From the UHGV virus genome UHGV-2163177: DNA of 15,118 nucleotides. One strand, written 5' to 3'. This DNA comes from a virus. A program made the position numbers and the translations under genes. The notes under the pieces were generated by a model. That model was not told the origin of the DNA. It did not search any database and saw only the letters and a program-made list of their open reading frames with translations. Shown in pieces: positions 1,529 to 14,766 of the stretch; positions within the stretch are counted from its first letter, which is position 1, and the number at the start of each line of letters is the position of its first letter.

Positions 1529-3517
1529 TTAGTTGTTAACTTGTACTTGTTCACAAGAAATATATCCCTGTCGTTTGTGTCTTCTCGCATGAGGAAATGC
1601 CAGTCTTATTTTTCCGGATCTTACTAATGGAACGAGCTGTTTTTCTCGTAGGTTCTGTGGTGTTCGGGCCATTAACTTTGCAATAACACTAAGCGGCATA
1701 TAATGGCCTGAGCAAAGCTTAAGTATGATTTCGTCCATGGTTTCGTTGGAAAGTCGTTTCTTTTCTCTGGCTAATGCAGATATGTCTTCTAACCGTTGCC
1801 TTAAGGTTGGTGAAAGGCACTCAAGGTTATCCACATAAGGAAAAGGTAGTTTCTCGGTTATAAAACGACCTAAAGCATCTCGTTCTTTTTCGTTATCCGT
1901 GATCAATTCTTCGTTATCCGTGATCAAATTATCGCTATCCGTGATGATTTGAGCTTCGTTTGCGAATGAGTTGTCTGTTGATAACGGATTTACACCAAAA
2001 ACTTCCTCTGGAGATGGAAGATCCTGCCCCGGTAATGTATATGATTTATTCCTCTTCTCACCATGAGGGACTAAGAATCCGCCGCTTACAAGGCGGGGTA
2101 AGGCTAAAGTTACCTCACGAGAGTGAAGGCTAGTTAGTTGACAAGCCCGTTCATGGTCAATCCACTTTTCTACGGCTGCAGTTATAACAATACTGCGCTC
2201 AAGCTCACTGAGATGGTCTACTTTGTCGCCAAATTTTGTATGGAGAAGATTGGCAATTTCTTCTGATACGAGGTTGCCAATAGATAGCTCCAAAAGTGTT
2301 TGTTCTGGTTCTGTTTTTTCATATAGCCTTGGCATACGCCAGTTAGCCCATTTCCAGCCACTAAATATTTTAGGGATCCCTGAGCCTGATCGTTCACCAG
2401 CACCAATAATTAAAAACATTTGATGCATCAGTCGGTTTCGACAATCGCTTTCATATCCTTTGATTGCTTGTTCTGGTGGCACGCGCATCAAACCTGGATT
2501 ACGGAAGCCAAATAGATCTGGTCGTTTCACAACCATGATGGAGATTCGTCCAGTATAATCGGCATGAACTAAGGTATTTACCAGCGCTTCACGCAATGCT
2601 GTGTGTATCTGAGTATCGTCCTGTCGGATACCTTCTTTAAGCTCAAAAGGGACTTTTAAGTCAGCAATTAGTTTTCGATAGGTTCGTCTGTAAAAGTCAA
2701 ACACGTTACCTGACCAAGTCCCATCGGGACATAGTCTATCTACCCATCTTCTTTCAGTTCTTGCTTCAGGGCGTTCTTGGTAATCCACAAAATAATTTGG
2801 GGCTACATCTTGTATCGCTTCCCATGTTCCAAACATGAGAATGCCAGCTAAGGTCATGCCTTCCAAACCTGTTTGCCGGTCTTTTCTATATCCCCCAATA
2901 CTTCGTAGGAAAGCAAAGTTATCTAGTTCGAGAGCTGGATGTGTCGGGTTTGAAGCAGATAGTAGATTTCTGTAAGCCAACAAGCTTTCTAGGTTAATAT
3001 CGTTCATGTCGAAGTTTTGTACGATACGGTTGTCGCGGCTTTCTTCAACCTGTTCGGCCATCATGCGACGAACTTGTTCTTCTGAACAACGATGATCACC
3101 GTCGTGCATACGAAACCATGTTTCTGACATGGGTTGATTATTCAAATAAACAGGTTTCTGTTCTCGTCGTGCGATTGGTATTTCAATGACAAGAATATCC
3201 TTTCCCTGTAAGGATACTGTTTGGACAGAGTTATTGGTAAGAAGATTAACGTTAACTTTTTTCTTGTTGCTCACGAGGTCGAAAAGCTGCTTTTTAACGG
3301 TATTTATATCTGAAATACCCGCAACGGAAAATTCCCCTTTTTTCTCTCTAATACCTAAAACCACATACCCACCACGGCAGTTTGCCATAGCACTATAGGT
3401 TGGCCAGAAATCATCAGGTAATTTACCTTGTCCGTCTTTCCCTTGAGCTAGCTTGAACTCTAGCTCTGCGGATTCCGAAAGTGCACGCAAGTCGCTAAGG
3501 TCAGATATTAGGAACAC
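1529..3517 (-). CDS. AlbA_2 (Schlafen-like) N-terminal domain plus HATPase_c_4-like ATPase domain protein, 662 aa; often mis-annotated as RecG-like helicase or transcriptional regulator
   Basis: Long ORF with GTG start 4 nt after a GGAGGA SD. N-terminal ESAELEFK motif is typical of AlbA_2; central ALREALVNTLVHADY motif is typical of HATPase_c_4. Domains read by eye. Confidence 0.75.
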   Translation of the reverse strand: MFLISDLSDLRALSESAELEFKLAQGKDGQGKLPDDFWPTYSAMANCRGGYVVLGIREKKGEFSVAGISDINTVKKQLFDLVSNKKKVNVNLLTNNSVQTVSLQGKDILVIEIPIARREQKPVYLNNQPMSETWFRMHDGDHRCSEEQVRRMMAEQVEESRDNRIVQNFDMNDINLESLLAYRNLLSASNPTHPALELDNFAFLRSIGGYRKDRQTGLEGMTLAGILMFGTWEAIQDVAPNYFVDYQERPEARTERRWVDRLCPDGTWSGNVFDFYRRTYRKLIADLKVPFELKEGIRQDDTQIHTALREALVNTLVHADYTGRISIMVVKRPDLFGFRNPGLMRVPPEQAIKGYESDCRNRLMHQMFLIIGAGERSGSGIPKIFSGWKWANWRMPRLYEKTEPEQTLLELSIGNLVSEEIANLLHTKFGDKVDHLSELERSIVITAAVEKWIDHERACQLTSLHSREVTLALPRLVSGGFLVPHGEKRNKSYTLPGQDLPSPEEVFGVNPLSTDNSFANEAQIITDSDNLITDNEELITDNEKERDALGRFITEKLPFPYVDNLECLSPTLRQRLEDISALAREKKRLSNETMDEIILKLCSGHYMPLSVIAKLMARTPQNLREKQLVPLVRSGKIRLAFPHARRHKRQGYISCEQVQVNN
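1890..1952. repeat. Three tandem copies of a 21-bp unit (tcgttatccgtgatcaa...) inside the 1529..3517 CDS, in frame
   Basis: Units at 1890-1910, 1911-1931, 1932-1952; the first 16 nt are identical in units 1 and 2. Encodes heptad-like ITDSDNL/ITDNEEL/ITDNEKE. Confidence 0.85.
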
Positions 3518-4075: not shown

Positions 4076-4341
4076 TTGACACTTTCCAGCTTAAGACCTT
4101 AACAAACCTTAACATCGCAGGTTGACACACTTGACACTTTTTCGCGAAAAACCTTAACAAAACTTAACCACCCCTGGCATTTCTAAGCATGGCAACTTGA
4201 CACTTTTCGCGATTTTTTCGGTTTTTTGACGTGGTGAATATGGTACAAGGCCAGTAATGGCGCGGCTTCTAGCGAGGTTGACACTTTTTCGCGTTCAGAG
4301 TGTAAAGTGTCAACCTGGCAAGCTGCTCAACTTGACACTTT
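4076..4341. repeat. Iteron array: five direct copies plus one truncated and one inverted copy of TTGACAC(TTT), several extended to TTGACACTTTTTCGCG, interleaved with ACCTTAACA-type repeats
   Basis: Full copies start at 4076, 4131, 4197, 4278, 4332; truncated ttgacac at 4122; inverted copy at 4305-4315; ccttaaca repeats at 4095-4118 and 4149-4170. Lies between the small ORF and the HTH gene. Confidence 0.8.
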
Positions 4342-7324: not shown

Positions 7325-7552
7325 TTCACCTGTTCACCTTTTTCCGTTTCTCCTTTTAATTCATTGTGTTAAGGGGTGAACAGTTTCACAAAAACTATTC
7401 ACCAACTGTTCACCACTGTTCACCCTTAAAGCTCAACAAATAATCAAAAAGGTGAACAGTGAATAGTTTGATGAACAGTTCATGAATAACTGTTCACCCT
7501 ATAACCAACTGATATAGAACACATTTATTACAGGGTGAACAGTGATGAACAG
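7325..7552. repeat. P4-type 'type I' iteron array: about ten copies of TGTTCACC or close variants in both orientations; putative replication origin (ori/crr-like)
   Basis: Perfect octamers at 7331, 7407, 7417, 7491 (direct) and 7375, 7451, 7535 (inverse), plus variants tattcacc, gtgaatag, atgaacag. Immediately downstream of the helicase gene. Confidence 0.8.
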
Positions 7553-7565
7553 TTATTCCATAAGT

Positions 7566-9380
7566 TTAATTTTTGCCATCGTCATTTGTGACCGATGCAC
7601 ATGAGGGCATCCAGTCTTCTGAATCCTCTGTCAGTATCACGTTTGAACGCAAGCCATGCTTCGTTTTCCGTTTCATATACTCCCTGCCGTATTCCGCCAT
7701 TGCCCCTGGCATATCCTTACCGAAGCGTGTCAGTGTTACGGGCTTACCGAATCCGTGTGCCCTCATATACGCCAGATAGGCGTGATAGAGATACCTGCGC
7801 GGGCTGAACGGAATAATTTCAGCATTACCCACTAACAGGCCATCGCACATTACCGACGACATGAGATAGCCGCAGAAGTCCACCAGCGAATCGCCCTCGC
7901 GTTTTATCACCAAGGCTTCTTCTGATTTCTGCTGCTCATATAGCAGGCGTTTAGCTTCGTCCTGGTCAGAAAAGCGTGTAAGCAGGTGGCGAATCACTAC
8001 CGCCAGCTCTCCTTCTATTTTTTCAGCCAGCATAGGGTCACGTTCGTTCTCCGGTACAACTTCCGAAAAATTGAATATTACCCGACGACGTGATATCCCA
8101 CCGCTGCGGTCACTGAATGACATGGCGTTATTGTTCACCGCCAGCACGACCGCCTGAATGCGTGTTGAGTAGGGGGCTTTATGTTTCGGGTCGATTGCCA
8201 CCTTATCACCGCCTGTAATGGCCTTAATCCCTGCACCATCACCAGCGTAACGGGTCATATCCGGCATGATAATCAGCGAAAAGCCAACCACTAACGCACG
8301 TTCCCTGGCATCTTCCAGCGCCTTCATGCTTGCCGATACCGTGTTGGCCTTACCCGCCAGCATAGTGCAAATCTCCGCCATTACGCTTTTACCGCTTCCA
8401 CCCGGCCCCGTTACCTCAAGAAATAACTGCCAGTCGTACCGATTCGCCAGCACCATGAATAACGCCGCCAGTACGCGATCTGCCTTGCGGTCATTCTCAG
8501 CCACCGAACGGCGCAACCACTTCCAGAAATTCGGCGCATGTGTTGCCAGCGTTTCCCCCTCTGCTGGTGGGCTGAAAGGTAATTCACTGGCAATTAACAA
8601 CCAGTCGTTTTTGTTATGCTCCCGAAAATTACCAGTTCTGGTATCAAATACCCCGTTACTGAATCCAATCAGGTTACGGGCTGTATTCCCCATTACGGGC
8701 AAACTTAACTTCATGGTATCGACCGCCGATTTGATGGCGTTCTGCGAATAGCTGATTTCCGCATCAATAAAAATCTGCGCCATAGCCCGCTGTAACTCTT
8801 TATCCTGTACCGGCTCCCATACAACACCGTTGTAGTGGTGAACGGTGTCAGAATCCGCATTGATTGCCAGTTCACCGCCATAATGTGCCAGGAGAACTTC
8901 GCCGCGCTGGCTTGCTCCCATCTGGTTAAGTGCCAGTGGTGTCGCGCTGTCTTCTGTTTTTTTCTTTGCCGGAAACCGGATAATCAGTCCGTCATCAATG
9001 TTTTTACGCTCACGGGCAAGGTATTCACGCCAGTTCTCACACTTCTGGCTGTGCATGCCATCAGGGTAATAATTCGCATTCTGTATACTTGCCGCCGCCA
9101 GCTTCTGACCAATTGCCTTAACCATTACAGGATCTAACTGTCCGGCTCTGAATATGCGCGCGGATGTGCGCCCATCAGGCACTATTTGCAGATTTCCGAT
9201 CTCTTTCAGTTGTTCATCAGCCAGCACAACAGGTGGCTCATTATCTCCAGCCATACGCGCATCGTGTTCCTGCCATTGTTTCGCGTGTGCCCAGGCATCA
9301 CTACCCGCGAAAATAATTACCTCTGTGTCTTTGTGTTTTATTCCGCGTGGCTGTTTTTTTACGTTCGGTGCCAGTTTCAT
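7566..9380 (-). CDS. P4-family primase/helicase-like protein, 604 aa (P4 alpha-like helicase and origin-binding region; the N-terminal primase domain appears to be missing)
   Basis: Walker A TGPGGSGKS; IKAITGGDKVAIDPKHKAPY...RRRVIFNFS matches the P4-family primase C-terminal (SF3 helicase) pattern; GGGGGG SD; start overlaps upstream stop. Confidence 0.85.
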   Translation of the reverse strand: MKLAPNVKKQPRGIKHKDTEVIIFAGSDAWAHAKQWQEHDARMAGDNEPPVVLADEQLKEIGNLQIVPDGRTSARIFRAGQLDPVMVKAIGQKLAAASIQNANYYPDGMHSQKCENWREYLARERKNIDDGLIIRFPAKKKTEDSATPLALNQMGASQRGEVLLAHYGGELAINADSDTVHHYNGVVWEPVQDKELQRAMAQIFIDAEISYSQNAIKSAVDTMKLSLPVMGNTARNLIGFSNGVFDTRTGNFREHNKNDWLLIASELPFSPPAEGETLATHAPNFWKWLRRSVAENDRKADRVLAALFMVLANRYDWQLFLEVTGPGGSGKSVMAEICTMLAGKANTVSASMKALEDARERALVVGFSLIIMPDMTRYAGDGAGIKAITGGDKVAIDPKHKAPYSTRIQAVVLAVNNNAMSFSDRSGGISRRRVIFNFSEVVPENERDPMLAEKIEGELAVVIRHLLTRFSDQDEAKRLLYEQQKSEEALVIKREGDSLVDFCGYLMSSVMCDGLLVGNAEIIPFSPRRYLYHAYLAYMRAHGFGKPVTLTRFGKDMPGAMAEYGREYMKRKTKHGLRSNVILTEDSEDWMPSCASVTNDDGKN

Positions 9381-10052: not shown

Positions 10053-10409
10053 TTACCCCCCCTGAATGACCTGATAACCGCAACTGGTCAGCAATTCGAT
10101 AAATTCCGGCAGTGTGCCGAAACAGCAATCATCACGCAGACGTTCGCGGGATACTTCAACGCCGTTTTCGTAGTGACTCACCATGCGTCCGGTAAAATGC
10201 AGATCATCATCGTGATGGCACGTTAACGGCTTAATCAGTCGCGCACGTTCTGCCAGTTCCAGCAATGCTTCAACGCTTCCGGCAATTGCACCATCCGGCA
10301 GGTGATAATTACTTACCACGCGTCCATTCTCCACGTTGACCAGTAGCTGCCCGGAAAATATCTCGTCAAACTGAATGCTGTTAAGGTCAGAAATTGACAG
10401 GTTATGCAT
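10053..10409 (-). CDS. Hypothetical protein, 118 aa
   Basis: ATG at 10409 with AGGAGG SD at 6-nt spacing. Confidence 0.55.
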   Translation of the reverse strand: MHNLSISDLNSIQFDEIFSGQLLVNVENGRVVSNYHLPDGAIAGSVEALLELAERARLIKPLTCHHDDDLHFTGRMVSHYENGVEVSRERLRDDCCFGTLPEFIELLTSCGYQVIQGG

Positions 10410-10626
10410 GGTGCACCTCCTGCACATCAGCCATGATAATTTTTCCGGCCTTATCCAGTGCCTGATCGGCTTTTAGCTGCACAAATGCTAAATAATGGGA
10501 GATGCATTCTGATTCTCTGGCTGCGTGTTTATGCGCCACACCAGCGATAGCAGAAATCTCAATAAGTGAATCCATCAGCGTTTTGATAGCGTCTACCGCT
10601 GCATCAGGCCATGTTGCATTACACAT
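10402..10626 (-). CDS. Hypothetical protein, 74 aa
   Basis: ATG at 10626 with AGGAGG SD at 6-nt spacing; overlaps the downstream gene start. Confidence 0.5.
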   Translation of the reverse strand: MCNATWPDAAVDAIKTLMDSLIEISAIAGVAHKHAARESECISHYLAFVQLKADQALDKAGKIIMADVQEVHHA

Positions 10627-10822
10627 GTTCCACCTCCTGGCGAATGCGGGCAGCGAATACCATCACGCAGCCATCAGGAGATTGCTGGCGTGCTTCCTGT
10701 TCGCTGGTGGCCTCGATGTGAATTACACGCGGTTGTGCTGTGCTCAGGGCGATAAAACGCCAGATATATTTATTCAGGTTGTGCGAGTCCCGCCCTTGCG
10801 GGTGTGTGGTATGATTTCTCAT
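10619..10822 (-). CDS. Hypothetical protein, 67 aa; first gene of the leftward operon
   Basis: C-terminal part of track ORF 10619..11470; ATG at 10822 with GAGG SD. The rest of the long ORF runs across the divergent promoter and the opposite-strand RHH gene. Confidence 0.45.
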   Translation of the reverse strand: MRNHTTHPQGRDSHNLNKYIWRFIALSTAQPRVIHIEATSEQEARQQSPDGCVMVFAARIRQEVEHV

Positions 10823-10903
10823 AGCTACCTCGATACTTCTGCTATCGTTGGTGGTTAGACGCCCTGCATGTGTTGCGAGCACTGCGGGGCGTTGCTCTTT
10901 CAG

Positions 10904-10949
10904 GTGTATTTCACCTTTGCTTTTTAATTTACTCACTGGTGAAATACAC
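10904..10949. promoter_or_regulatory. Putative operator: perfect 12-bp inverted repeat gtgtatttcacc / ggtgaaatacac with 22-bp spacer, in the divergent promoter region
   Basis: Arms at 10904-10915 and 10938-10949; a leftward -35-like TTGAAG overlaps the right arm; a rightward -10-like TATACT lies near 10981. Confidence 0.5.
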
Positions 10950-11015
10950 TTCAAGCCTTTTTTTATCATTTTTTTTGCGTATACTGACATACACCAATTT
11001 TTAGGAGATCCAGAA

Positions 11016-11195
11016 ATGGCAACTGGTGCAAAGAACGCAAAATCACAAATGACAACTGTCAGAATCCCACATGAAGTAATGGATGATATTGAGCAACTTA
11101 AAGAACCTGGCGAAAGTACCGCTGGTTTTTTAGTTACTGCCGCAAAAGGCGAGATCAAACGCCGCCAGCGGCGCAAGGCCAAAGAACAGGAGTAG
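11016..11195 (+). CDS. Small ribbon-helix-helix-like DNA-binding protein, 59 aa (candidate element repressor)
   Basis: ATG with AGGAG SD; TTVRIPHEVMDDIEQL resembles an RHH beta-strand/helix start; basic C-terminal tail; only supported plus-strand gene in the element. Confidence 0.5.
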   Translation: MATGAKNAKSQMTTVRIPHEVMDDIEQLKEPGESTAGFLVTAAKGEIKRRQRRKAKEQE

Positions 11196-11462
11196 TTGAT
11201 TAGCGCCGGGCGCCCAGAAAAAATCGTATCAGTCGCGCCACCAGCAAAATTTTTTGCTTTCCGGACGGCGTGGCCAACGGCATTTTGCAGCAAAATATTC
11301 TGCATTTCTGGCGTACTGTGGCGACGGTGATCAGCGCCTTCACATTGAACGAACTTGTCGCTAAAATTCACCCATATAGCAAACATCGCGGTGCTGTAGG
11401 TAATTCGTTCACAAAGGCGCTCCGGCAACGGGGCGCTTTCTCTTTTTGTAACGGTCAGAGCG

Positions 11463-12263
11463 TTACACATGGCTGTTTTCCTCCATGCGACGGGCTAACC
11501 AACGCTGCGAAAGGCGAATTAATTCCGCTTTCCGCTGGTGGTAGTCCTGGCCTAACTCAATCAGCGTGATATTGCTCTGCTCAAGGTAAGAAAGGTGCTC
11601 AAGCTGCAACGTGCTCATGTGGTCGCGTGGTTCGCCTGTAATGCCGTTCGCCTGTGCCCACTGTTTTGCAGTCATGCCACCCAGCACGATACGCGCCAGC
11701 ATATTGGCTTCCGTGGTGTAGTGGTGCTGGAACGTGTTTTTACCCAGTTCAGCCCGGTACGCCTCCAGCGCGGCACACATCGGCTTAAAGTAGCTGGCAA
11801 CGGTGATACGGGCTTTCAGTTCCCGGCGTAACGCTGCGGAACGCACTGGCGCTACCTTGTGTAGCTCCTCCTCGCATTTGATGAAGTACTGACGAACGGC
11901 ACGGCCCTGTTCGGTGCGTTCGACCATCGCCAGTTCTTTTGCCATGTTCACGGTGATGATGTACTCAAGAGCTGTTTGCTGGCGAGATTTTGCGCTCACC
12001 GGATCGGGTCGGCTCAAATATTCAACAACCTCATAATCCACGCCTTCCGTGAAGCCGTATTCTTCAATGCGCCCCTTGATCCACGAACGGAAAACGCGCC
12101 CTACACCTAACGCCTTATGCAACGCTCTGGCACTAACAATATTGGTTTCACGCCCGCCAATAACGCCGGAAATAACCGGGATAATTTCACCAAAATTTTG
12201 CAGATTCTGGTTTTCAGGCCGAACGAAGCCCTGCCCCTGTACGGGCGTTTTTGGAAATTTCAT
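11463..12263 (-). CDS. Phage antirepressor, AntA/AntB N-terminal domain family, 266 aa
   Basis: NIVSARALHKALGVGRVFRSWIKGRIEEYGFTEGVDY matches the AntA/AntB pattern; AGGAG SD 7 nt upstream of the ATG. Confidence 0.75.
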   Translation of the reverse strand: MKFPKTPVQGQGFVRPENQNLQNFGEIIPVISGVIGGRETNIVSARALHKALGVGRVFRSWIKGRIEEYGFTEGVDYEVVEYLSRPDPVSAKSRQQTALEYIITVNMAKELAMVERTEQGRAVRQYFIKCEEELHKVAPVRSAALRRELKARITVASYFKPMCAALEAYRAELGKNTFQHHYTTEANMLARIVLGGMTAKQWAQANGITGEPRDHMSTLQLEHLSYLEQSNITLIELGQDYHQRKAELIRLSQRWLARRMEENSHV

Positions 12264-12342: not shown

Positions 12343-12561
12343 TCAGGCTGATGTGTTTCGGCGTTCTTCCAGCCAGCGATTAATCTCTACCGCATCGAAT
12401 GCAGTGCTTTTCTCACCCAGTTTGATGGGCTTAGGCATCTTCCCGCTACGTACCCAACGATCGAGCGTTGATAAGCTGGTACCCAGCAATTCAGCCAGGC
12501 GATAGCGGCGGATATAGCCAGTTGCAGGGATTGCGGTTTGAAGTATTGGTTGGTTTTTCAT
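12343..12561 (-). CDS. AlpA-family transcriptional regulator/excisionase-like protein, 72 aa (start may be 12570)
   Basis: YIRRYRLAELLGTSLSTLDRWVRSGKMPKPIKLGEKSTAFDAVEINRWL is the typical AlpA/Vis HTH pattern; the N-terminal extension in the ORF track is unlikely. Confidence 0.7.
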   Translation of the reverse strand: MKNQPILQTAIPATGYIRRYRLAELLGTSLSTLDRWVRSGKMPKPIKLGEKSTAFDAVEINRWLEERRNTSA

Positions 12562-13512: not shown

Positions 13513-14766
13513 TTATTTATTAGATTGCGTGATGTCAGAACATATCATGTTTTCTAAATTCACCAGCAAATCAGTCCATTGTGCTAGTGCCGCTTTGCGC
13601 TCATCAAAATATTGATGGCGGTTATAAATGCCCTCTACGCCTTTTATGCGGTGGTTAAGGCATCGTTCAGCAACGATCGGGTCAACTCCCAATGCTGCTA
13701 AATGTGTTCGTGCTGTTCGCCGGAAGTCGTGAATTGTAAAGTTGGGGACGTTCGGCATTTCTGCTCTGACTTTTGCCAATGCAACAGGAAGGGTGCTTTC
13801 CTGGATGTGAGGGATCATTCTGTGCTGCATTTTTCTGGCAGGTAATACCCATGCGCTATTGCATGAAAATGTATGCAATTCTCGCAACCATTCTATAGCC
13901 GCTGGTGGCAATGGTATGTCGATAGCATCACCATTTTTAGTTCGTTGTTCTGGTAGATGCCAAATCGCGCCATCTAAGTCGAATTCATCCCACTTGGCGG
14001 CGCATAATTCCATTTTTCTGACACACAACGCCAGGAGCAACTTAAAGGTTAATTCGTTCTGGCGGCTGAATCCTTTGGCTTTACGCATTGCCTGAAAAAA
14101 TTGGATTAATTCGTCCCGGTTCAGCCAACGATCACGAGATAATTCTTTCCCACCAGCATCTGAAACTTCGAAAGCTGAGCAGGGGTTAACTTCCAAAGCA
14201 AGGCGTTTAATACCGTAGTCAAATATGCGACGTGTCCAGCGAAGAACGTCAGTAGCAATTGTTGGAGCGCCTCTATCAACAATACTTTTAAGCATAGCAT
14301 CAATATGGCGTGGTTTTACATCTTCAACCTTCATGTGGCCTATGGCTGGATTTATGTCTTTATCAATGCGCCTACGGAGAATATCTGGGTGTTTCCACCG
14401 GGGAAGTATTTGCCGTTCAAAGTATTCGGCGGCAAGTTCAGAAACGTGCAGCGCGTTTTTTTCGGCTTCTATTTTTGCCAGTGCTTCGGCTTTACGCTGC
14501 TGTTTTTCTGCGGCTACGTCATATCCCAAAGCAACTCGTGCGGAAAGTTCTTTTGCCCGTTCCCTCGCTTTTGATAACGATAATTCAGAATATGAACCAA
14601 TAAGCATGGCACGAGATTTTCCTGCTAGTTTATATCGAAACCGCCAGGTAGGGGATCTATCCACCTCTCTATACCGGAGATATAGCCCACCACCATCAGC
14701 ACGACCTTCGAAATGTTCTCCGGCTTTTATCCATGCGCGGATCTGCATATCTGTGAGTTTTGGCAT
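13513..14766 (-). CDS. int: Tyrosine integrase, P4-type (IntA/IntS-like), 417 aa
   Basis: N-terminal arm-binding-type domain (GGGLYLRYREV...WRFRYK); C-terminal catalytic region with HDFRRTARTHL and conserved Tyr region; located just inside attR. Confidence 0.9.
   Translation of the reverse strand: MPKLTDMQIRAWIKAGEHFEGRADGGGLYLRYREVDRSPTWRFRYKLAGKSRAMLIGSYSELSLSKARERAKELSARVALGYDVAAEKQQRKAEALAKIEAEKNALHVSELAAEYFERQILPRWKHPDILRRRIDKDINPAIGHMKVEDVKPRHIDAMLKSIVDRGAPTIATDVLRWTRRIFDYGIKRLALEVNPCSAFEVSDAGGKELSRDRWLNRDELIQFFQAMRKAKGFSRQNELTFKLLLALCVRKMELCAAKWDEFDLDGAIWHLPEQRTKNGDAIDIPLPPAAIEWLRELHTFSCNSAWVLPARKMQHRMIPHIQESTLPVALAKVRAEMPNVPNFTIHDFRRTARTHLAALGVDPIVAERCLNHRIKGVEGIYNRHQYFDERKAALAQWTDLLVNLENMICSDITQSNK

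Follow-up and report, generated by a model that had tools for sequence, protein, structure and literature searches.

A small predicted ribbon-helix-helix protein as a candidate repressor of the replication operon in a Gram-negative phage-inducible chromosomal island

The window analysed here is the whole 15,118-nucleotide stretch of UHGV virus genome UHGV-2163177, and our subject is a small gene within it (plus strand, 11016-11195; ATG 11016, TAG 11195) that encodes a 59-amino-acid protein of the YlcI/YnfO family, predicted to have a ribbon-helix-helix (RHH) fold. By its gene layout the element that carries it is a Gram-negative phage-inducible chromosomal island (PICI). Taken as a whole, we consider it probable that the RHH protein represses its own gene together with the divergent leftward operon, which runs from an icd-like gene to the primase gene, and that it does so through short boxes of the form GTG-N5-CAC. 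What was observed or predicted is the fold of the protein, the boxes, their positions relative to the promoters, their co-variation with the protein, a long leftward frame that is kept open and the homology of the icd-like gene to P4 kil; from these we infer that the protein binds DNA and represses, which way the switch works and how induction comes about.

The original prediction had described a perfect 12-bp inverted repeat between the two divergent genes as a single operator. The repeat is present, with GTGTATTTCACC at 10904-10915 and GGTGAAATACAC at 10938-10949 and 22 nt between the arms, and it is beyond chance: across 2000 dinucleotide-preserving shuffles of the 193-bp intergenic stretch a 12-bp perfect repeat was never obtained, the maximum being 11, reached once. 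Each arm contains one copy of an 11-bp box, GTG-N5-CAC. Box 1 (GTGTATTTCAC, 10904-10914) is inverted with respect to box 2 (GTGAAATACAC, 10939-10949), and box 3 (CTGACATACAC, reverse complement GTGTATGTCAG), the proposed autoregulatory site, lies at 10984-10994. We compared the window with 77 loci encoding RHH relatives, taken from one-genome-per-species bacterial genomes, and with 80 loci from IMG/VR. In nearly all loci the boxes sit at fixed offsets from the RHH start codon, box 1 at about -112 or -100, box 2 at -77 and box 3 at -32; box 2 is directly followed by (G/T)TCAA and box 3 is fused to a conserved GTATACTG. Boxes 1 and 2 differ from each other by 0-1 mismatch at almost every locus, and GTGTATGTCAC is a natural box-1 variant at loci that encode the same protein type. 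A possible fourth box, GTGAATTACAC, with one mismatch to box 2, lies within the icd-like coding sequence at 10718-10728 and may be either a fourth operator or a chance occurrence. In some other specificity types an additional box is found approximately 200 bp inside the leftward gene.

Boxes 1 and 2 are direct repeats in some types and inverted repeats in others, and since the upstream boxes are direct in many relatives, the palindromic symmetry seen in the window is incidental. This freedom of orientation indicates that the boxes are protein sites rather than an RNA hairpin, and it bears on the alternative that the repeat acts as RNA, whether as a hairpin, a terminator or an antisense target in the manner of the C4/CI immunity RNAs. 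An immunity RNA does lie just upstream of icd/kil in P1 and P4, and in a terminator scan box 1 is flagged as a small hairpin with a T-run after it. However, direct repeats would be unable to pair, the predicted leftward transcript begins between the two arms, and Rfam detects C4 and isrK-like RNAs in P4 (74.9 and 60.8 bits) but neither in the window nor in 20 related loci. The structured RNA that the leader does contain (10831-10892) lies outside the repeat. We therefore regard an RNA function of the repeat as very unlikely. The Rfam search for C4/CI or isrK RNA beside the icd-like gene returned none at the gathering threshold, at E <= 10 across 10400-11700, or in the 20 related loci, and the weak matches to R1162 antisense RNA, ToxI and SAM-II (E 1.3-8.4) were taken as chance.

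The position of the boxes relative to two predicted divergent promoters is that expected of a repressor for the leftward promoter and of autoregulation for the rightward one. The leftward promoter, P_left, has a -35 element TTGAAG (the reverse complement of 10949-10954) whose last base is common to box 2, so that, as had been noted before, it overlaps the right arm of the repeat, by one base. The minus-strand hexamer adjoining box 2 is TTGACG, TTGAAG, TTGAGG or TTGACA in 50 of 72 loci. The -10 element TAAATT (minus strand, 10926-10931) follows after a 17-nt spacer that is filled by box 2, and TA...T-type hexamers are found 16-18 nt from the leftward -35 in most loci. Transcription from P_left would start near 10919, which would place box 1 at about +5 to +15 of the transcript. 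On the plus strand, box 3 overlaps the predicted start region (near 10992) and the -10 element (TATACT, 10980-10985) of the RHH promoter; this hexamer is identical at its offset in 47 of 72 loci, with close variants in most of the others. A Shine-Dalgarno sequence, GGAG, can be read at 11004-11007, 8 nt before the RHH ATG, and most loci have GGAG or GAGG at this position. The leftward operon begins with the icd-like gene (minus strand, 10619-10822, 67 amino acids), which starts at 10822 rather than at 10823 as given originally. Its product and P4 Kil belong to the same NCBIfam family, NF033153, with scores of 71.7 and 76.1 bits, respectively, and on this family membership we treat the icd-like gene and P4 kil as homologues.

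That the 59-amino-acid protein resembles RHH proteins had been proposed from its sequence, and structure prediction bears this out. An AlphaFold2 monomer model built with 29 homologues (predicted local distance difference test score, pLDDT, of 87) has an extended segment at residues 11-18 and helices at 19-28 and 35-58, which is the beta-alpha-alpha order of the RHH (Arc/MetJ/CopG) superfamily. The strand at 11-18 is extended and unpaired in the monomer, as an intermolecular sheet would require, and a G32-E33-S34 turn separates the helices; within the main family E33 does not vary, and G32 and S34 hardly do. R16, the N-terminal arm and the C-terminal tail EIKRRQR are also invariant. The protein matches NCBIfam NF041551 (YlcI/YnfO) with 64 bits against a cutoff of 30, and the PHROG families that it matches carry no functional annotation. 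Pfam DUF3950 did not match the window protein even at E <= 10, and it matches 8 of 23 aligned relatives, with a best E of 8e-10. Searching the PDB with the single sequence gave nothing useful and no solved relative, and searching it with the family profile returned only Arc, at a non-significant E of 1.4, in a register that equates R16-x-P18 with Arc R13-W14-P15. This alignment pairs RHH positions 12, 14 and 16 with Arc Q9, N11 and R13, the residues by which Arc contacts bases. A tblastn search of 50,697 phage genomes with the RHH protein produced no match, which indicates that at this sensitivity the subfamily is not a phage gene. The open-access literature searched gave neither a function for a YlcI/YnfO/DUF3950 protein nor a description of the switch proposed here; in a 2026 survey YlcI/YnfO is entered as a 'prophage-associated protein' (PMC13612085).

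Evidence that the RHH protein recognises the boxes comes from co-variation. The protein is strongly conserved as a whole, whereas its beta-strand exists in many versions. Across approximately 145 related loci, the box core changes at all three boxes together with the version of the RHH beta-strand, here defined as residues 11-18. We found 23 beta-strand variants, which fall into at least 13 classes, each with its own box core. The window's type, QMTTVRIP, goes with GTGAAATACAC; QLFTVRVP goes with GTGAAACACAC, KKLEARVP with GTGTCAGCCAC, LQVSVRLP with GTGAACACCAC, QQLNARFP with GTGAATCGCAC, KQVNVRVP with GTG(A/C)ATAGCAC, QSVTARIA with GTGTCTTACAC, KRFDVRVP with GTGTCGGACAC and QQIVSRVP with GTGAATGCCAC, while QALKARVP and QSLKSRVP share GTGTGGCCCAC. 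The prototype island EcCICFT073 has the beta-strand QALKARVP, and carries GTGTGGCCCAC twice and TGTCCCCCAC at the -10. The same pairings of beta-strand and box were found again in 72 distinct IMG/VR loci. For types with the same residues at positions 12 and 14, an average of 1.0 of the 5 core positions is different, against 3.6 for other pairs, a difference that was attained in 0 of 20000 type-level permutations, although these statistics are inflated because the loci are related. It also weighs against our interpretation that under 120 bp separates the RHH gene from the boxes and that they are inherited together, and for this reason pairs of loci were compared at matched flank identity. In this comparison core identity was 0.94-0.98 between loci with the same beta-strand and 0.30-0.56 between loci with different ones, and the low values persisted where the flanks were at least 80% identical. 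Cores that are frozen within a type and randomised between types are not what linked drift predicts, and the matched-flank control argues against it. Co-variation thus provides strong indirect support for sequence-specific binding of the boxes by the RHH protein, presumably via side chains of the beta-strand.

The boxes could still be genuine protein sites that are bound by some other factor, such as AlpA, the Icd-like or Eta product, or a host or helper-phage protein, with the RHH protein doing something else. AlpA is a DNA-binding regulator that controls these islands (PMC6092414), and the PHROG families that contain the icd-like protein are labelled 'transcriptional repressor'. However, that label stems from an old annotation of the P4 'cI' reading frame, and the true immunity function there is an RNA. 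Moreover, the icd-like, ant, alpA and int genes are very different or undetectable among loci whose boxes are identical, and this leaves the RHH protein as the only consistent partner of the boxes; the box core is tracked by the RHH beta-strand only. Neither a host nor a helper factor would explain at least 13 element-specific cores. We consider that a different binder is improbable.

A related arrangement is seen in a distant subfamily (loci L067-L078, for example from Gilliamella, Xenorhabdus and Serratia), whose proteins are of the IRFPHE...NFSAWV type and match Pfam DUF3950. These loci keep the layout, with boxes of 12 bp (GTG-N6-CAC, for example GTGTTTAAACAC) that are at times present in four copies. 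The shared layout suggests that the design of the switch predates the main family.

Ribbon-helix-helix proteins raise the further question of whether the window protein serves above all to neutralise the toxic Icd/Kil-type product, in the manner of the RHH antitoxins of toxin-antitoxin systems, with DNA binding serving autoregulation only. A co-transcribed toxin gene downstream of the RHH gene is absent, and a search for a toxin candidate there ended without a conserved gene, as the loci share no plus-strand open reading frame (ORF) at this place. In EcCICFT073 an extra, co-directional ORF for 57 amino acids follows directly after the RHH gene (L080, 25243-25416), but neither the window nor any other locus examined contains a homologue of it. 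An icd-like gene is also undetectable at many loci that have the RHH module, and two of the three boxes are positioned for blocking P_left and not the RHH promoter. The antitoxin reading accordingly retains a small share of our belief.

The region between the divergent genes is more than the simple intergenic switch that was originally drawn: the genes are indeed divergent, but the region lies within an open leftward frame and contains a structured leader RNA. The frame, which we call eta-like, would encode 283 amino acids (minus strand, 10619-11470), is in phase with the icd-like gene, and begins with an ATG that overlaps the stop codon of the AntA/AntB-family gene, ant (ATGTGTAA). It crosses the operator region and runs antisense through the RHH gene. 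Among related loci it lacks stop codons in 58 of 73 from genomes and in 60 of 72 from IMG/VR (about 80%), where the other two frames have about 8-9 stops. The equivalent frame of EcCICFT073 is a 428-amino-acid ORF (L080, 24767-26053) that starts 53 nt after alpA and is probably the 'ORF3' named when that island was first described. No family or domain was detected in the eta-like translation outside its icd-like end, and we therefore consider that selection acts on the open frame, that is on its translation, rather than on a particular protein. An intrinsic terminator was not found on the minus strand between ant and the icd-like gene in our scan.

Selection on the leftward frame invites the opposite view of the locus, in which the 59-codon plus-strand ORF is silent, the long leftward frame is the real gene and the 'RHH' sequence is its antisense by-product. 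Gene callers that prefer long ORFs would choose the leftward frame, as for the 428-amino-acid ORF of EcCICFT073. Against this stands the conservation of the small protein itself, which is 60-98% across genera with invariant residues and is accompanied by a conserved Shine-Dalgarno sequence and -10; the small protein is also confidently predicted as RHH, whereas the antisense translation yields no family or domain beyond the icd-like end. It is thus highly improbable that the RHH gene is a by-product.

The leader RNA of the icd-like gene (10831-10892) was specified by hand and then tested with controls. Hairpin 1 (minus strand, 10859-10892) is formed by ACGCCCCGCA ... TGCAGGGCGT with an inner GTG/CAC stem. 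In an alignment of 32 loci 89% of its cells pair, with compensatory changes in 13 of 17 pairs; this was matched by 0 of 500 shuffles, and slid controls pair at 32-44%. Hairpin 2 (CGATA-N7-TATCG, minus strand, 10831-10847) abuts the icd-like Shine-Dalgarno sequence GAGG (10831-10828), and here 98% of cells pair, with compensatory changes in 3 of 4 pairs. Between the hairpins lies a nearly invariant single-stranded motif, UCUAACCAC (minus strand, 10850-10859), whose alignment columns are invariant or nearly so. RNAalifold recovered only part of hairpin 1 from the leader alignment, owing to alignment register, and no Rfam family matched 10831-10892. The leader could control translation of the icd-like gene, or could be a processing or stability element.

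In addition to the close linkage of gene and boxes, several points weigh against the RHH protein as repressor. Its support is comparative or predicted throughout. Foldseek gave no significant match of the model to the PDB, and the surface positions of helix 1 vary as much as the beta-strand, so that variability alone cannot pinpoint the residues that read DNA. The rightward RHH promoter has no recognisable -35, and a simple promoter scan called neither divergent promoter in the window; both promoters were instead predicted from conservation. Finally, AlpA, described as an activator in EcCICFT073, induces that island when it alone is overexpressed (PMC6092414), which means that any repressor must be one that can be overridden.

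A mechanism that would accommodate these points can be outlined as follows. In the quiescent state the RHH protein would be made from its own promoter and would occupy box 2, in the -35/-10 spacer, and box 1, just past the start, turning off P_left and expression from icd-like/kil through to primase; with P_left blocked, the replication genes of the island would be silent. Occupancy of box 3 at the TATACT -10 would provide negative autoregulation of the RHH gene. The variable beta-strand residues, chiefly 12 and 14, would read the variable N5 core, and R16 and the N-terminal arm would probably read the invariant GTG/CAC flanks. Differences in N5 readout would then give rise to many mutually exclusive specificity (immunity) types. 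Induction would come from AlpA-dependent transcription that starts upstream and passes through ant and the eta-like frame, antisense to the RHH gene, into the icd-like gene and primase. Such read-through across the operators would bypass repression, coupled translation of the open frame would shield the transcript from Rho, and convergent transcription would silence the RHH gene.

The original prediction had assigned both the antirepressor gene ant and alpA to the induction side of the switch. The part concerning Ant is not supported; Ant was rejected as the partner of the repressor, since ant is present at only about 16 of the 77 loci with the RHH module. The part concerning AlpA draws on published work on EcCICFT073 rather than on the sequence. 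We regard alpA as the likely source of the read-through transcription. EcCICFT073 relies on a helper phage for its induction, replication and packaging, and whether islands of this kind have a global repressor is described as unclear (PMC6092414). A Pseudomonas AlpA is reported to be an antiterminator (PMC7969949). The 'lysogeny-type repressor' role that had been given to the RHH protein is one that we, too, infer from the architecture. A bolder version of the model would cast the RHH protein as master repressor of the Gram-negative PICIs and as the basis of a protein immunity system, one with 13 or more operator specificities that has taken the place of the P4 CI RNA within an eta/kil-type nested gene. 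The switch would be flipped by AlpA-driven, possibly antiterminated, antisense transcription with coupled translation, and not by cleavage or an antirepressor, and the frame would be open only so that ribosomes can escort RNA polymerase into the replication operon. We put this forward tentatively, as something rather less than an even bet.

The identity of the island follows from its relatives and its gene order. The window is DNA of E. coli: positions 10400-11600 are 99.6-99.8% identical to the chromosomes of E. coli ABU 83972 and relatives, and DNA similar to this 1.2-kb region is found in 1259 of 5426 complete E. coli genomes, about a quarter. The ABU 83972 copy sits between yicC and dinD, and comprises genes for an integrase, an alpA-type helix-turn-helix protein, an AntA/AntB protein, a 'YlcI/YnfO family protein' and an 'Icd-like' protein, several small genes, a primase and accessory genes. 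In its RefSeq annotation the YlcI/YnfO (RHH) gene is the sole plus-strand coding sequence, in agreement with what had been noted for the window. A Gram-negative PICI was taken to be an element of about 10-15 kb with int, alpA and primase in one direction, at a specific chromosomal site and without a full set of virion genes. In the window, int (13513-14766), the alpA-like helix-turn-helix gene (12343-12561; Pfam PF05930) and primase (7566-9380) are all on the minus strand, as is the AntA/AntB-family gene upstream of the eta-like frame (11463-12263; Pfam PF08346, E = 2.4e-23). The RHH/icd-like module is syntenic with that of EcCICFT073 from strain CFT073, where a YlcI/YnfO gene diverges from an icd-like gene that leads to primase.

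Further features were seen in the window. A consensus scan identified a terminator-like hairpin with a T-run on the plus strand at 11414-11449, the likely end of the RHH transcript; it has no T-run for leftward transcription. Approximately 50 nt before it is a promoter-like TTCACA-17-TAAAAT (10 of 12 matches), and in the plus-strand interval 11339-11449 the RHH transcript may end, or an independent small RNA of some 70 nt may be encoded, which would be antisense to leftward read-through. The stretch from the RHH stop codon to ant contains a pair of 26-nt direct repeats (CAGCAAAAT.TT.TGC...) at 11242-11313; they show internal dyad symmetry and may bind another regulator. Directly downstream of primase, at 7374-7543, is a cluster of perfect inverted repeats of 11-12 bp, and it is here that the replication origin is drawn on published PICI maps. 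Between small accessory genes, at 4275-4316, there is a perfect inverted repeat of 13 bp whose arms are 16 nt apart. At the far end of the island a 662-amino-acid ORF (minus strand, 1529-3517) is annotated in ABU 83972 as an 'RNA-binding domain-containing protein', and satellites often have anti-phage defence genes at this position. The Rfam int-alpA RNA motif (RF02996) scored above threshold between int and alpA at two related loci (L026, 4969-5037; L076, 4592-4657), and no match to it was found in the window.

The founding paper on Gram-negative PICIs leaves open how the islands are kept silent and how a helper phage awakens them (PMC6092414), and an RHH repressor would be a concrete candidate answer, encoded by a conserved, previously unannotated gene that is present in EcCICFT073. 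The specificity types of protein and operator predict which islands would coexist and which would cross-repress. The same types could supply engineers with naturally occurring pairs of small repressors and operators that are orthogonal to one another, and delivery and diagnostic tools based on PICIs are already under construction. A repressor gene that lies antisense within a frame kept open is an unusual arrangement, as is the apparent exchange, at one and the same locus, of an RNA immunity factor for a protein one.

Several known systems resemble the one proposed here in part. Type II toxin-antitoxin systems with an RHH antitoxin have a co-transcribed toxin gene, which is lacking here. In the immI region of P22 the RHH repressors Mnt and Arc control P_ant, but there is no significant sequence similarity to the window protein (E = 1.4), and P22 uses one symmetric operator of 17-21 bp where the window has three separated 11-bp boxes; immI controls ant, whereas the target proposed here is a replication module, with the RHH gene embedded antisense in another frame. 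The RHH protein Omega of pSM19035 binds contiguous 7-bp heptads, direct or inverted, in contrast to boxes that are 22-45 bp apart and have palindromic GTG/CAC flanks, and we know of no series of co-varying specificity types for Omega. The master repressors Stl and Rpr of Gram-positive PICIs (SaPIs) have the same role and position, as their genes are likewise divergent from a xis/pri-rep operon and they keep the island quiescent (PMC6092414). Stl and Rpr are, however, much larger proteins of unrelated fold, and int and alpA are not co-transcribed with the RHH repressor.

A further parallel is P4, whose immunity region runs from P_LL through vis and eta, within which lie P_LE, seqA, the CI RNA and kil, and on to the alpha primase gene. 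Both elements have an alpA/vis gene, a long frame coupled to the upstream gene, an internal promoter, a nested kil/icd-like gene at the end of and in frame with the longer ORF, and an operon leading to primase; in both, a hairpin precedes the Shine-Dalgarno sequence of kil or the icd-like gene. The two differ in that P4 has within eta, beside its internal promoter, an isrK-like element and a CI RNA of the C4 family, the latter its immunity factor, RNAs that went undetected in the window and its 20 relatives, and in that P4 has no RHH gene by tblastn against the phage genomes. A later survey of PICIs reports immunity RNAs in some such islands and describes most of their genes as unidirectional (PMC10111431). 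In the island analysed here, we propose that the slot of the P4 CI immunity RNA is filled by a protein repressor gene on the opposite strand together with its three operators.

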